This document shows positions 52,603 to 59,868 of a stretch of DNA of 64,000 nt, piece by piece. The first letter of the stretch is position 1; each line of letters opens with the position of its first letter. The stretch comes from an uncultured archaeon (GTDB lineage: Archaea; Asgardarchaeota; Thorarchaeia; Thorarchaeales; Thorarchaeaceae). A program made the translations under genes and the position numbers. Below the pieces are notes generated by a model, which saw nothing but the letters and a program-made list of their open reading frames with translations, was not told the origin of the DNA and made no database searches. Location of the stretch: NCBI GenBank assembly GCA_964558645.1, contig CAZLEV010000006.1, positions 1 to 64,000 on the forward strand, given 5' to 3'.

Positions 52603-53124
52603 CTAGAGCCAGTGGGATATTTGAAAGAAGACAATGACCGGTGCGAGCAGCAGCGCTCTCACCATCAGTGACTGTCCTCTGTTCTTCAGCTCTCTGGAGG
52701 AGGGCGTAAAATAAAGAATAGCGCCCCCCAGTATTGCCACGGCAACCATGATTTGTGCCAGAAACAGTAGCAGGGCCACCAGATCTGTATCACTCATGCC
52801 GAGTAGTGATAACCACGCCTGGGTAGCTGTTTCCAGCGTGATACCGCTGATACCAGCAATTCCGGCAAATAGGGTAACAAGATAGGGGCCAATGAAGTAG
52901 AGGGCAACTCCGACTACAATCAATATCTTTGCCAGTGAATCACTCAGGGAGGAAACGAACACTATGAGCCCTGCAAGAATCAGAATGAAATACCCTCTGA
53001 TGGATAGTGCGTAAAGAACGTTGAATGCAAAAGCAACGATATCAAGCCAAGACTGGAGCTGTTCATCTGGAAACGGCATCTGCATCAGCGATGCCCAGAG
53101 TAAGACATCGTCCATTACATCCAC
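52603..53124 (-). CDS. Four-TM membrane protein resembling a tandem pilin-like duplication
   Basis: Two helix-loop-helix units; the second (GAILYFTP..ELKNRGQSLM) resembles ORF 1315-1566. Confidence 0.55.
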   Translation of the reverse strand: MDVMDDVLLWASLMQMPFPDEQLQSWLDIVAFAFNVLYALSIRGYFILILAGLIVFVSSLSDSLAKILIVVGVALYFIGPYLVTLFAGIAGISGITLETATQAWLSLLGMSDTDLVALLLFLAQIMVAVAILGGAILYFTPSSRELKNRGQSLMVRALLLAPVIVFFQISHWL

Positions 53125-53828: not shown

Positions 53829-55508
53829 ATGAGTTCTCAGGTAGTAGTTCTAGGAGTTGCAGAAGACATGCGTATGCTACGAACCACTTCGGAAACCTTT
53901 CCGGCCGAGAAAGAAATGATGAGTGATATCCCATATGTACTTCGAGTGGAGTTTGGGGCCCTTGAAGAAGAGGCAGAGAGAATCATCGGCAGGCCGATAG
54001 TGTGTTACAAGTGTGGTGGTTTTCTCCTCAGTGTGGATCAGATAATTGAGGAGGACAAGGTCGGCAGGCATTTCATCTGTTCCTTTTGTGGAACACTAAA
54101 TGTTATTGAGGGGAAGATAATCACTGCAGGGGATAATACCGACTTCGTTGTCGAGCCCCCTCGTGAGGTCGCAGAATCTCAGAAAGAACCAGTAAAGCAA
54201 TTTGGAGGGAGCTTTCTCGCACTCATAGACGTTTCAGGTTCTATGGCAGGCGCCAACCTCGCTGCTGTCAAGAGGAGTCTCAGGACATCAGTTGAGAGCC
54301 TAGCTAAAAACGCGCCAAACACCATGTTCGGCCTGATTGAATTCGAGAGTGGAGTCTTATTCAGAGACCTCCATTCGGGTGGAAAAATAGCCCTCCCGCG
54401 TAACTCCTATGCCAGTTTTCACGAGATACAGAAAGAAACCAAGAAGCTGATGGACCAGATTAGATTTCTGAGTGTTGGCGAGAATTCAGACAAGATCAAG
54501 AAGCATCTCAATGCATTGCGTGATCAAGGAGGAACGGCTCTCGGCCCCGCTGTTGCCATGGGATATACTATTGCAAAACACCGAGATGTGGGTCGTGTTG
54601 TGCTGTTAACCGATGGGCTAGCCAATGAGGGCATAGGGGCGCTGGAAGGCTACCAAGTCACTCCCGCAGCCAACTTCTACGAAGAAGTAGGGCTTCAGTT
54701 CATGGAAAACGGTACTGCAGTCGATGTTGTAGGCATTGCGTCGGGCGCCGGGATGGAGCTCAAGACATTGGGCCTTCTTGCAGAGGCTACAGGCGGGCAG
54801 ATGTACTATGTTACACCTAACGAGCTTGACCAGAGTATAGCGGAGTTGGCAGGCAGTTCTCTCCTTGGTCGGGATGTGGAAGTGCGACTGATTACACCCA
54901 CCGGTGTCAAAGTGAAAGATGCATCAGGGGTTTCGCGCGCGATTATTGAAGAACTGAGAACCAAAGGCGAGAGCAAAATCGGAGCAGTTGGGGAGAATCA
55001 CGAACTCTATTTCGAGATTGAACCCGAAAGTAGAATTGAGGCGGAAGATGTGCCCATTCAGGTTCAGGTGACCTATACCGATGCAGAGGGGGCCCGAAGA
55101 GTTCGGGCAGTGACAACCATACTTAAGGTTGCAAGGGATAACAAGGAATTGCTGGAAACCCTTGACCCCACCATAGGTGCAACGTTTGTGACTCAAAAAG
55201 CAGGAGAAGAGTCTTTCAGAGGGAATCGAGAGGGGGGGAAGAAACGTATTGCGTCTTTCAGAGCAGCAATGAATAAACAGGCCAAGTCAGCGCCAGGGCC
55301 AATTCAGAATCGGATGAATGAGATAGACAATGTCTTGGCTGAGGAAGAGGGTGAAATGGAGCGTTTGGATGATATGATGAAAGCTGCACCCGCTTCGGCG
55401 CCATCTACAGCAGCCGATCAGGCATACACCTCAGGACTTCAGCAGATGCGTCGTAGTTCGAAGCAGATGTTCGGCAAGAATAAGGCCGACGAAGAGGAAG
55501 AGGAGTAG
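53829..55508 (+). CDS. Sec23/Sec24-like protein (Zn finger, vWA trunk, beta-sandwich, helical region)
   Basis: CYKC..FICSFCGTLN; DVSGSM, GTALGPA, TDGLAN, LAEATGG; IQVQVTYTD.EG.RRVRAVT. Confidence 0.82.
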   Translation: MSSQVVVLGVAEDMRMLRTTSETFPAEKEMMSDIPYVLRVEFGALEEEAERIIGRPIVCYKCGGFLLSVDQIIEEDKVGRHFICSFCGTLNVIEGKIITAGDNTDFVVEPPREVAESQKEPVKQFGGSFLALIDVSGSMAGANLAAVKRSLRTSVESLAKNAPNTMFGLIEFESGVLFRDLHSGGKIALPRNSYASFHEIQKETKKLMDQIRFLSVGENSDKIKKHLNALRDQGGTALGPAVAMGYTIAKHRDVGRVVLLTDGLANEGIGALEGYQVTPAANFYEEVGLQFMENGTAVDVVGIASGAGMELKTLGLLAEATGGQMYYVTPNELDQSIAELAGSSLLGRDVEVRLITPTGVKVKDASGVSRAIIEELRTKGESKIGAVGENHELYFEIEPESRIEAEDVPIQVQVTYTDAEGARRVRAVTTILKVARDNKELLETLDPTIGATFVTQKAGEESFRGNREGGKKRIASFRAAMNKQAKSAPGPIQNRMNEIDNVLAEEEGEMERLDDMMKAAPASAPSTAADQAYTSGLQQMRRSSKQMFGKNKADEEEEE

Positions 55509-55677
55509 CACTAAACAGACGGCCGTTTGTTCATCTTTCGCCTGTCTGTGGGAGAAACATGATTCCCACAGAATGCGCAAAAGAGATATGCATGAGGGGA
55601 CACACTGCCACAACTCTCAAATACCCAAGAGCGACCTAGAAACTGCTGACGCACTATCTAACAGTGGGGATTCACGG

Positions 55678-55968
55678 TTGATTAGCCAAGAGCGACTTGA
55701 TGCAATTCTAGCAGATCTTACAGCCCAGGAGGGCGTTAGAGGAGTCGTAGTCACAACCATGGAAGGTCTACCATTGAGCAGTGATCTTCCACCTGAAACC
55801 ACTGAAGCCGTCGCTGCAATACTGACCTCTCTGGTAGGTAAGGCACTTGATGCAGTTCGAGAGCTTAAGGAGGGGTCTTTGTCGTTCCTGACCCTCGATA
55901 CAACCGAGGGACAGATAAACATCGCACCGGATGTTAAGGAGGGCCTCATATTAGTAGTCCTCAAATAG
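55678..55968 (+). CDS. Roadblock/LC7 domain protein
   Basis: GVRGVVVTTMEGLPLSS..AVAA. Confidence 0.9.
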   Translation: MISQERLDAILADLTAQEGVRGVVVTTMEGLPLSSDLPPETTEAVAAILTSLVGKALDAVRELKEGSLSFLTLDTTEGQINIAPDVKEGLILVVLK

Positions 55969-55993: not shown

Positions 55994-56461
55994 ATGAGCG
56001 ATCCGAAAGCCTTTGACAAGATACTCACGGAGATTATTCGGCAAGATAAGGGAATCAAGAAAGTGATTCTTGTCGATAAGACTGGGCTGACAATAGCCAA
56101 TGTGAGCAAGTTGAGTTACTACCCTGTGGATGTGGACAGTATCGGTGCAATTGCGAGTGCCGTGTTTTGTGCTAGTGAAGAACAGGGTAAGAACCTGCAA
56201 ATAGGAGAGCTTGAGATTGTGACATCCGAGTTCTCGGAGGGGAAGATTTTCGCCTCGGCCTGTGGTAAGGGAGTTCTCTGTGTGGTATCAGAGGCAGAGG
56301 TCAATATCGGCCTCATTCGTCTGGTAATGAAGAAACAGGGTAAGCAACTGGCAGACGAACTGGACAAGTTCCTCGCAGTGGAACCAATGGCACCCAGCAA
56401 GGATCGCGAGCTTGACGAGGAAGACCTCAAGTCCGCCTTGGCCGAACTCGAGAGAGTTTAG
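55994..56461 (+). CDS. Roadblock/LC7 (MglB-like) protein with acidic C-terminal helix
   Basis: VILVDKTGLTIA, IGAIAS, NIGLIRL. Confidence 0.9.
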   Translation: MSDPKAFDKILTEIIRQDKGIKKVILVDKTGLTIANVSKLSYYPVDVDSIGAIASAVFCASEEQGKNLQIGELEIVTSEFSEGKIFASACGKGVLCVVSEAEVNIGLIRLVMKKQGKQLADELDKFLAVEPMAPSKDRELDEEDLKSALAELERV

Positions 56462-56730
56462 GTTCACATGTTCATGTCCGTGATCACTGGTACTCCCTTG
56501 ATATGTGGACCCCCAGTTCCAAAACCGGGAAAGGTCTTCCAAGCAGGGGTTGATTTCTTGGCGGGCCACACGACGGACAAAGGCTTTTATGAGACTAAAC
56601 TTCTATCACCTTCAACCTCCCGAGGCTAGGCCCGAAACTCGTGAGGATACTCTGACCTTTGTGGGTCGCCCCTGATGCAATTGCATCCGGCAAGTTGGAT
56701 CCTCTGGGTCTCATCGAACACGGGTAAGCA

Positions 56731-57315
56731 GTGAATCTACGAGGTGTTCCAGTGAGAAAGGACGACAAAGGGCGAATACATCTGAAGCTGGTATTCTATG
56801 GTCCAAGCTTAGGTGGAAAGACGACCGCTCTTCGCTGGCTTTATGGAAAAGTGGAAGGTTTACAGAAAGGAGAGTTCACTGCGATCGAGGATGAAACAAA
56901 CCGAACTCTGTTCTTCGACTATGTGCCAATGAGTGCAGGAGGGCGGGTCTTATTCGACGTTTTCACTGTTGCTGGTCAGAAACGGCACAGGCATCAACGA
57001 AAGGTGGTTTTACAGGGTACCGACGGAATTCTGTTTGTTGCAGACTCTTCACCCGATCAACGTGATGAGAATACGGAGAGTTTCGAAGAACTCAAGCTCT
57101 TTCTAGGGGATGCCTTGGGCCGGGAGATTCCCATTGTTGTGATGTTGAACAAACGAGACCTTCCCAACCGCATGTCGCGTGATGAGATGCTCGATCTACT
57201 GGGTCTGGGAGGCAATGTGCCCATTTATGAAACGATTGCTATCCAAGGCGTAGGAGTTAAGAGAGCATTTCAGGCTATAGCACGAGAAGTAATCCTCAAA
57301 AGGATGTACAAGTAG
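56731..57315 (+). CDS. MglA-type small GTPase
   Basis: G1 GPSLGGKTT, RTLFFD, G3 TVAGQ, G4 NKRD. Confidence 0.92.
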   Translation: MNLRGVPVRKDDKGRIHLKLVFYGPSLGGKTTALRWLYGKVEGLQKGEFTAIEDETNRTLFFDYVPMSAGGRVLFDVFTVAGQKRHRHQRKVVLQGTDGILFVADSSPDQRDENTESFEELKLFLGDALGREIPIVVMLNKRDLPNRMSRDEMLDLLGLGGNVPIYETIAIQGVGVKRAFQAIAREVILKRMYK

Positions 57316-57331: not shown

Positions 57332-57703
57332 ATGAGTGAATCCCGTGGAGAAACCCTCGAAGGTGTTCTAAATGAGCTACAGGGTAGTATCCCTGAGATT
57401 GAGGCCTGTGCCATTGTTAGTGTAGAGGGGTTGCCAATCGTGTCAGCCCTGCCCGCAGATGTTGATGAGGCAAAATTAGCTGCGATAACGGCTGCGATGC
57501 TAACTCTTGGTGAGAAGGCTGCAGTTGAACTAGGAAAGGGTGAGCTCGAACAGGTCAATGTAAAGGGCAGGGAAGGGTGGGTTCTTGTCATTCAGGCGGG
57601 TATGAACGCCTGTCTTACAGTTTCAACAACAGGCACCGCCAAACTTGGTCTTGTATTTCTTGATATGAAACGAGCAGCAGAGAAAGTCGCGATGATGATA
57701 TAG
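57332..57703 (+). CDS. Roadblock/LC7 domain protein
   Basis: AIVSVEGLPIVSAL, LAAITAAML.LGE, AKLGLVFLDM. Confidence 0.92.
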   Translation: MSESRGETLEGVLNELQGSIPEIEACAIVSVEGLPIVSALPADVDEAKLAAITAAMLTLGEKAAVELGKGELEQVNVKGREGWVLVIQAGMNACLTVSTTGTAKLGLVFLDMKRAAEKVAMMI

Positions 57704-58632: not shown

Positions 58633-59868
58633 ATGATGCTTCCCGCACTTCAAGGAGAAGAAGTGGAATTGACACGAAACCCACTTGAAACATATCAAGG
58701 ACTTATCACGAGTACTCTGACCGACGAGATCCAATCATATATCTTAAAGGTCGTTGAGAGATATTCGGATGCCACCTTTGCTGATGAGAAGTTCTCCGTT
58801 CACTTGGGGCGTTTCGTGGAGCTTGTCTGTCGACTTATTTCGAACCTGAACAACCGGAAGGAGGCGACTCTGACTGATCTTATGCAAGCTGTTGACATTC
58901 TAGATTATTTTGCATCCACAACTCGATGGTGGAATATGACACGTTCATCGCCCGGGATAATTCTCCGGCCTGCAACACGAGAGCCACGTGAATTCATAAA
59001 GTCGGTTCCATCGGTGCGGCTAGGTAGTGAAACCATCAGCAGGATACAAGGTGCGTCAGACCGTCTTTCGTCATTTCTGAATGAGCACGAGATTGCCGGT
59101 TCGGATACCAGAGATCATCTACAACGTTCTATGGTGTCAGCATGGACCATCCTCAGTGCATTCTGCTGCAAGAGTCAAGGGCGCAATGTGTCTTCCGAAG
59201 TAGATTTCGAAACCGCATACGACATCCTCAGGATACTCCTCTTCCACACACCCCGCGTTGATTTTGTTGCACTAAGCGCGATTAGGAATATCGCCACCAG
59301 TTCTCGACTTCCGAAGATTGCTGACGTTGCCTTTTCACCCGGCTTTGAGAAGAAACTCGATTCATCGATAGCTGCGAAGCTGGAGGCAGCCCATGGTGAA
59401 TACCTCGGGGATGCAGGCGATACAGTCCCCAGAGTATCTCGTGCCATCTTGACAAACTCAATCAGATTGCTTGCACAGATTGAGAGTGTGAATATAGGTA
59501 TCAATAGAATAGAAGAGGACGACTATGATAGAGTGACCATGGGGGCCCTCAGCCTACTGGAGAAGGTCCGCATTGACCCGGAGATATTTCACGATGAAAA
59601 CGTTGTGGTTGGACTTTTCAAGAGGCTTACACCTGCAGAAGAGGACATTGGCGAGGGGCTGGCACTACTCACACGAAAACTGGAGAGTCTGATTGTTGAC
59701 TCCACAGGCAATCGCAATTTCCTGCTCCAACACGCAAGAGTGGTACCTCGACTAATTGCTTTGCTTCTTTTGATCTCGAGCGGCACCAAGTCACCCGAGG
59801 ATGATGGACTAAGAGATATCGATTTGAAGAGAGGTTTGATTCTGTTAGAGAACCTGATCAGTGATTAG
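58633..59868 (+). CDS. Hypothetical protein with four AAA-lid-like repeats
   Basis: Recurrent helix-loop-D-helix units; no Walker motifs. Confidence 0.55.
   Translation: MMLPALQGEEVELTRNPLETYQGLITSTLTDEIQSYILKVVERYSDATFADEKFSVHLGRFVELVCRLISNLNNRKEATLTDLMQAVDILDYFASTTRWWNMTRSSPGIILRPATREPREFIKSVPSVRLGSETISRIQGASDRLSSFLNEHEIAGSDTRDHLQRSMVSAWTILSAFCCKSQGRNVSSEVDFETAYDILRILLFHTPRVDFVALSAIRNIATSSRLPKIADVAFSPGFEKKLDSSIAAKLEAAHGEYLGDAGDTVPRVSRAILTNSIRLLAQIESVNIGINRIEEDDYDRVTMGALSLLEKVRIDPEIFHDENVVVGLFKRLTPAEEDIGEGLALLTRKLESLIVDSTGNRNFLLQHARVVPRLIALLLLISSGTKSPEDDGLRDIDLKRGLILLENLISD

Follow-up and report, generated by a model that had tools for sequence, protein, structure and literature searches.

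CPRas1 proteins combine an N-terminal circularly permuted Ras (cpRAS) domain with a linker, a putative four-cysteine zinc finger and a von Willebrand factor A (vWA)/Sec23-trunk region (Elias & Novotny 2008, PMC2430557), and paralogues without the Ras domain occur in Dictyostelium, Entamoeba, ciliates and some animals (PMC2430557). Asgard archaea encode 'Sec23/24-like' proteins (PMC11914678 and others) that match Sec23 in Foldseek searches and have no gelsolin domain (PMC11914678), and these 'Sec23/24 homologues' have repeatedly been cited for a COPII forerunner in the archaeal ancestor of eukaryotes. A structure of ArnA–ArnB from Sulfolobus acidocaldarius (PDB 8s05) is titled 'archaeal ortholog of the Sec23/24 core motif', and the cation in its MIDAS (metal-ion-dependent adhesion site) is held via D46, S50, T110, T135 and D136 (PMC12852372). 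Here we analysed a 64,000-nucleotide stretch of DNA from an uncultured archaeon of the Thorarchaeaceae (assembly GCA_964558645.1, contig CAZLEV010000006.1, positions 1 to 64,000; hereafter the window), centring on a Sec23/24-core-like gene (53829..55508, forward strand) that encodes a protein of 559 amino acids, P0001. This protein belongs to the already published Asgard family (P0026 is 68% identical) and agrees with it in lacking a gelsolin domain. It carries a complete MIDAS, and its family scores highest, outside Asgard archaea, with eukaryotic CPRas1-type proteins.

Domain architecture and invariant motifs

P0001 comprises a zinc finger, a vWA domain with a MIDAS, a beta-sandwich and a helical tail, all encoded on the forward strand by a gene that is single copy in its genome. 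The zinc finger (54003..54089) reads CYKCGG...CSFCGTLN, with four cysteines (C59, C62, C84 and C87) and then N91, all of them invariant in Asgard and eukaryote-type homologues. Pfam returned no zf-Sec23_Sec24 match in P0001 at E 0.01; the CxxC...CxxC pattern lines up in a profile alignment with the zinc finger of yeast Sec24 and is also covered in the structural alignment described below. The vWA domain, equivalent to the Sec23 trunk (approximately residues 127–343; 54207..54857), exceeded the Pfam cut-off for Sec23_trunk (8.5e-12, 45.6 bits; cut-off, 27), was also matched by VWA_2 and VWA, and shows the alpha/beta pattern in the structural model. Three invariant elements make up the MIDAS: motif 1, D134-V-S136-G-S138 (54228..54242), which by motif order equates with the ArnB metal ligands D46 and S50 (PMC12852372); the threonine T236 in GTALGPA (54534..54536); and T261-D262 (54609..54614), which open an invariant TDGxANxGxG loop. 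The beta-sandwich (approximately residues 345–435, 54861..55133, together with N-terminal strands 17–53) is represented by strands in the model, aligns to Sec23/24 and scored 32.2 bits with Pfam Sec23_BS, slightly below the cut-off of 33.5. It is followed by a C-terminal domain of predicted helices (residues 438–558; 55140..55502) with an acidic tail; the protein ends at residue 559, and Pfam found no gelsolin domain in it. Nor was a GTPase domain matched by Pfam in P0001, in which 48 residues precede the zinc-finger region.

Among 18 Asgard homologues (24–54% identity), the four cysteines, D-x-S-G-S-M, T-x-L-G, T-D-G-x-A-N-x-G-x-G and Q411/Q413 (two glutamines of the beta-sandwich) are invariant, and the same motifs hold in a 32-sequence alignment that includes two eukaryote-type sequences. 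Invariance at such low identity indicates that the motifs are not due to chance and are under selection. An earlier note on the window, made from its sequence alone, had described a Sec23/24-like protein with a full MIDAS and quoted a run of motifs; all of these were located in the open reading frame (ORF) at 53829–55508—DVSGSM (D134–M139), GGTALGPA (T236), LLTDGLANEGIG (T261, D262), FYEEVG and LGLLAEATGG—which bears out that description. The same note had held the MIDAS to be degenerate in canonical Sec23/24. This is partly confirmed, 'degenerate' being a fair description of Sec24, the protein that the evidence covers: the profile alignment shows D-V-S-Q-S and the threonine retained in the yeast protein, with S-G-T in place of T-D-G, and Toxoplasma Sec24 has VESAC where the family has VSGSM.

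The nearest homologues of P0001 are all from Thorarchaeota, one of them labelled 'SEC24 family transport protein, Thorarchaeota SMTZ1-45'. The start codon at 53829 (ATG; 53829–53870) is probably 13–15 codons too far 5', with M14 or M16 as alternatives, given that homologues align from approximately residue 13 and that the predicted local distance difference test score (pLDDT) is <50 for residues 1–13.

Predicted structure

An AlphaFold2 model of P0001 built on the 32-sequence alignment (pLDDT, 84.9; predicted template modelling score, 0.85) begins with N-terminal strands and the region of the zinc finger, continues with the alpha/beta vWA domain and the beta-sandwich, and closes with a helical domain (438–558). 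The top Foldseek matches in the PDB were all Sec24 or Sec23 chains (E ~1e-29, TMq 0.65–0.71). VIA-align superposed residues 7–559 of the model on residues 362–949 of Sec24A and 5–641 of Sec23A (Z 28.7, approximately 500 residues, root-mean-square deviation of 4.4 Å), and the alignment ends before the gelsolin region of both Sec23A (at 641 of 765 amino acids) and Sec24A (at 949). Judged from the model, P0001 is thus a carrier of four of the five Sec23/24 domains, the gelsolin domain being the missing one. As in Sec24 and Sec23 (PDB 1m2v, 1pcx and 5vng), the zinc finger, trunk, beta-barrel and helical domains are predicted to be in equal spatial arrangement; P0001 differs in having no gelsolin-like domain and in its complete MIDAS, whereas yeast Sec24 is without the MIDAS aspartate. 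ArnB (8s05_A) was aligned with Z 25.5 over 363 residues and the Catenulispora vWA protein 4fx5 with Z 21.7.

Relationship to eukaryotic CPRas1-type proteins

A profile made from Asgard sequences only (A1; residues 49–445 of P0001 and 17 others) was searched against 1.84 billion representative sequences. Approximately 40 Asgard-type clusters ranked first, followed by eukaryotic proteins: a vWA protein of Entamoeba invadens without cpRAS (EIN_474480, here P0172; 547 amino acids) was matched over its full length with 223.7 bits (E 3.4e-61), and proteins named 'circularly permutated Ras protein 1-like' from Acanthaster, Tubulanus, Ostrea and Lineus with ~207 bits (E ~1e-56). Against PDB sequences the same profile gave 69.6 bits for yeast Sec24, 63.8 for human Sec24A, 43.9 for ArnB and 32.9 for yeast Sec23. 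Further Ras-bearing members were found in Willaertia, Ancoracysta, Arcella, Rhizamoeba and Pyxidicula. In the Ras-bearing relatives Pfam recognizes Ras in two stretches, zf-Sec23_Sec24, Sec23_trunk and Sec23_BS, and positions 59–178 of the small-GTPase model map before positions 14–60, which is the circular permutation itself.

The relationship was also seen from the eukaryotic side. An alignment of 16 Ras-less eukaryote-type proteins (A3) matched A1 in hhalign with a probability of 100 (E 1.1e-69, 384 columns) and scored 70.4 bits with Sec24 and ≤28 bits with Sec23, which places it as far from them as A1. In direct BLASTP comparisons, P0001 matched the Acanthaster protein XP_022105296.1 at 5e-34 (residues 37–487 on 303–785) and the Entamoeba protein at 2e-44, collinear from end to end. 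DxSGS, TALG and TDG are invariant in A3, and a motif scan found all three in most of 112 eukaryote-type representatives. The nearest clusters in the ESM Atlas include 'circularly permutated Ras protein 1' at 0.96, which we take as a lead only. By these profile bit scores, and not by branching order (the tree below contains no Sec23/24 rows), the Asgard and CPRas1-type families are each other's closest relatives, with Sec23/24 about equally distant from both. The resemblance to the non-Ras part of CPRas1 that the earlier note had drawn from its motifs is therefore well founded on the ~207–224 bits of A1, the hhalign match and both BLASTP matches.

P0001 shares with the C-terminal half of CPRas1 and with its Ras-less paralogues the zinc finger, the vWA domain with DxSGSM, TALGP and TDGxANxGxG, the beta-sandwich and the helical tail, in this order, and the Entamoeba protein (547 amino acids) is similar to it in length. 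It lacks the N-terminal cpRAS domain that defines CPRas proper, its identity to eukaryotic members is 23–25%, and in these an insert often separates the zinc finger from the vWA domain. One 1,089-residue protein from a JGI metagenome (P0123) has the zinc-finger/vWA/beta-sandwich module (E 3.9e-48 to A1) fused to Kelch and ankyrin repeats.

Phylogeny and distribution

In a quick tree (IQ-TREE, LG+C20; 90 rows, 404 columns), 36 Asgard rows lie on one side of a branch with an SH-like approximate likelihood-ratio test (SH-aLRT) support of 93, and 50 eukaryote-type rows form a clade (SH-aLRT 98). The 16 Ras-bearing rows, with one Ras-less row among them, constitute a nested subclade of the eukaryotic clade (85). 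Given this nesting, the cpRAS fusion looks late and derived, which fits an origin within eukaryotes. Ras-less proteins such as those of Entamoeba and Soliformovum, with N termini too short for a Ras domain, are basal in the eukaryotic clade. The bacterial vWA rows used as an outgroup sit on very long branches, and the root is unsure, the eukaryotes being either sister to or nested in the Asgard sequences.

Homologues of the Sec23-like gene were present in 152 of 400 Asgard genomes. When 185,579 species genomes were scanned, full-length relatives were found solely in Asgard records (Thor, Freya, Jord, Hermod, Heimdall, Odin and 'Promethearchaeota') and in one record titled Undinarchaeota; beyond Asgard, matches drop to bacterial proteins aligned over the vWA domain only (residues 84–294, E 1e-11 or weaker). 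The exceptional record, 'Candidatus Undinarchaeota archaeon' (CAZFHY010000012.1), contains a full-length homologue with 33% identity (E 2e-58), which could reflect a mis-binned or mislabelled Asgard contig, or transfer. Two metagenome scans (queries P0275 and P0219) returned either nothing or contigs of 2.5–2.8 kb without gene context.

Gene neighbourhood

Four genes on the same strand follow the Sec23-like gene. RoblA (55573..55968), a Roadblock/LC7 protein (Pfam Robl_LC7, 6.5e-15), begins 65 nucleotides downstream, and RoblB (55994..56461), with matches to Robl_LC7 and to MAPKK1_Int (LAMTOR3/MP1-like), comes next; RoblB has an acidic C-terminal helix after a proline-rich linker. After a gap of approximately 270 nucleotides stands an MglA-type small GTPase (56731..57315), and 17 nucleotides beyond it an MglB-like roadblock gene, RoblC (57332..57703; Robl_LC7, 1.1e-16). 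The gap (56462–56730) shows no convincing ORF, is of similar size in other Thorarchaeota loci and might contain either a promoter or a small RNA. The GTPase scored 133.8 bits with the MglA structures of Myxococcus and Thermus, versus 48.2 with Arf4 and 35 with Rab7, and on this sequence evidence is an MglA orthologue and not Ras. Like the MglA–MglB switch of Myxococcus and Thermus, the locus has an MglA-type GTPase with a roadblock gene directly after it; unlike that switch, it has three roadblock paralogues and a Sec23-like gene. The genome as a whole has 12 roadblock matches and three MglA-like genes; the two outside the window (789–1340 on contig C19 and 31649–32164 on contig C16) encode products 52% and 36% identical to the window's MglA, and the one on C16 has a roadblock match approximately 1.7 kb away.

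We sampled, with wide flanks, 15 genomes of the Thorarchaeota family beyond the window. RoblA–RoblB lies directly 3' of the Sec23-like gene in 14 of these, with MglA–RoblC also present in 13; the remaining genome has neither roadblocks nor MglA at the locus. Loci with short flanks (L002–L029) have downstream roadblock genes in all but one case, and in most Thorarchaeota loci a further roadblock gene, in divergent orientation, lies upstream. Given only 12 roadblock and three MglA-like genes in the genome of the window, it is unlikely that the adjacency is pure chance, but it counts as a single evolutionary event.

Proposed function and origin

From what the sequence analysis shows (how the domains are arranged, which families score best, how homologues are distributed, that MIDAS and zinc finger are invariant and that a gelsolin domain is missing), we infer with moderate confidence that P0001 is a cytosolic, metal-dependent protein–protein adaptor built on the Sec23/24 core, belonging to an Asgard-wide family whose nearest kin are eukaryotic CPRas1-type proteins. 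By analogy with vWA proteins and ArnB, the MIDAS would hold a cation and capture a partner protein through an acidic or phosphorylated side chain. In Thorarchaeota, the gene context suggests that P0001 would work with RoblA and RoblB and, via them, with the MglA switch, as a platform or effector; more speculatively, the MIDAS ligand might be RoblB's acidic C-terminal helix or else the acidic tail of P0001 itself. The catalytic arginine of Sec23 sits in the gelsolin domain. Because this domain is absent, P0001 is unlikely to act as a Sec23-type GTPase-activating protein (GAP); the GAP of MglA systems is MglB, a roadblock protein.

Several points weigh against this reading. In Thorarchaeota, the synteny extends into UppS and two further unrelated genes (h411 among those conserved), and therefore conserved order alone is no proof of a functional link. 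MglA–RoblC may be a separate transcription unit, as suggested by the ~270-nucleotide gap, by an insertion in the RoblB–MglA gap of one Thorarchaeota genome and by the loss of MglA–RoblC from another, which has the Sec23-like gene, RoblA and RoblB. Among approximately two dozen genera sampled outside Thorarchaeota, we found no conserved gene context, approximately 20 of them having nothing similar within 5–7 kb; the neighbours there include beta-lactamase-family, MFS, homoserine dehydrogenase, methyltransferase and ABC-2 proteins. As to kinship, slow evolution of the CPRas1-type proteins together with fast evolution of Sec23/24 could explain the similarity instead of branching order, and many of the eukaryote-type matches are metagenome or transcriptome records, although the organism was eukaryotic in 15 of 15 cases in which a name was returned. 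The domain architecture of CPRas1 itself offers little clue to function (PMC2430557).

Three of the non-Thorarchaeota genera have a GTPase or roadblock neighbour. In three genomes of one Asgard genus, a Ras-family GTPase (Pfam Ras, 3.4e-45; L038:5669–6190, L039:5688–6212 and L048:5661–6185) lies approximately 780 bp upstream on the same strand, separated from the Sec23-like gene by an AhpC-like fragment; in a second genus, a different small GTPase (L054:4150–4818) lies 126 bp upstream; and in a third, a roadblock gene is upstream. By a rough estimate, three genera of approximately two dozen is close to the number expected by chance in Asgard genomes, which are rich in GTPases. The earlier note had argued that fusion to a GTPase in eukaryotes and adjacency to one here would together be Rosetta-stone support for an ancestral partnership. 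We consider this argument weak, because the two GTPases are of different families (MglA in the neighbourhood here, Ras in the fusion), only Thorarchaeota show the adjacency, which lies in a wider syntenic block, and the fusion, nested within eukaryotes, looks derived. A looser statement would be that this fold is found coupled to small GTPases three times—to Sar1 in trans, to cpRAS in cis and to MglA/roadblock proteins in an operon.

The adaptor reading can be extended to origins, tentatively and with our own balance of judgement tilted against it: the COPII inner-coat fold would have had an ancestral form with a competent MIDAS, represented together by the Asgard and CPRas1-type proteins and acting as a general small-GTPase adaptor coupled in the three ways just named, from which Sec23/24 would be derived by gain of the gelsolin domain and loss of the metal site. 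If so, the widely cited 'archaeal Sec23/24' would say little about a proto-COPII coat and would point to an unstudied GTPase-adaptor system inherited by eukaryotes. The Asgard family is approximately three times closer in bits to a patchy eukaryotic family that has the metal site and some members of which are fused to a permuted Ras. Should this hold in a joint phylogeny, the proper eukaryotic counterpart of the Asgard proteins would be the CPRas1-type module, the non-Ras half of CPRas1 would gain an archaeal pedigree, and inferences about proto-COPII function would need tempering. CPRas has been counted as potentially present in the last eukaryotic common ancestor (Elias group, PMC13393502), which is in keeping with the module having descended vertically from an ancestor of Asgard type. 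Outside subscription-only papers and supplements, a full-text literature search found no paper mentioning both cpRAS and Asgard, and none joining Sec24, Asgard and vWA/MIDAS; the text of PMC11914678 contains neither MIDAS nor cpRAS nor any word in 'neighbo-', and 'roadblock' occurs in it solely in a cited title. With RoblA/RoblB and MglA as candidate partners in Thorarchaeota and the MIDAS as a mutational handle, the adaptor idea is testable.

P0001 might instead be a proto-COPII inner-coat subunit, the direct ancestor of Sec23/24, that attaches to membranes and to an Arf/Sar-like GTPase and so buds vesicles. The best structural matches are indeed Sec24 and Sec23, over four of five domains, the Sec23_trunk match exceeds its Pfam cut-off, and the literature treats the Asgard proteins as Sec23 precursors (PMC11914678). 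We nevertheless regard this as unlikely: the gelsolin domain is absent both in our structural alignment and in PMC11914678, the MIDAS is intact, unlike that of Sec24, the similarity to CPRas1-type proteins is approximately three times higher in bits, and the neighbouring GTPase is MglA rather than an Arf/Sar protein. Moreover, Asgard Sec23-like proteins are reported to co-precipitate with an Asgard Arf only weakly and independently of nucleotide, and to lack the residues that contact Sar1 (PMC11914678).

It is quite improbable that P0001 is an ArnA/ArnB-like, phosphorylation-dependent regulator, with zinc finger and vWA domain fused, that controls how a surface or motility structure is expressed or assembled. 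MglA/MglB modules set motility polarity in bacteria, which would suit such a role, as would the long structural alignment with ArnB and its cation-binding MIDAS. ArnA–ArnB shares with P0001 the vWA domain with MIDAS, the beta-sandwich, the C-terminal helical domain and a zinc finger docking on it (PMC12852372); the finger, which is fused in P0001, is provided there in trans by ArnA, a separate FHA protein. Against this, sequence similarity to ArnB is weak (43.9 bits), and no FHA protein, kinase or phosphatase was found among the neighbours examined.

It is very improbable that P0001 is one of the generic YfbK-like vWA proteins of prokaryotes, without any particular link to eukaryotes, for although the vWA/beta-sandwich combination is widespread in prokaryotes (PMC12852372) and 4fx5 can be superposed, bacterial vWA proteins scored 34–50 bits over the vWA domain alone (which contradicts this identity), full-length relatives are essentially Asgard only and the bacterial rows occupy a long separate branch in the tree, so that the grouping with bacterial YfbK-like proteins raised in the earlier note was not observed.

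Two further ORFs flank the locus. The upstream one (52603–53124, reverse strand; 173 amino acids) had no Pfam match at E 0.01, and the downstream one (58633–59868, forward strand; 411 amino acids) is syntenic after UppS across Thorarchaeota.

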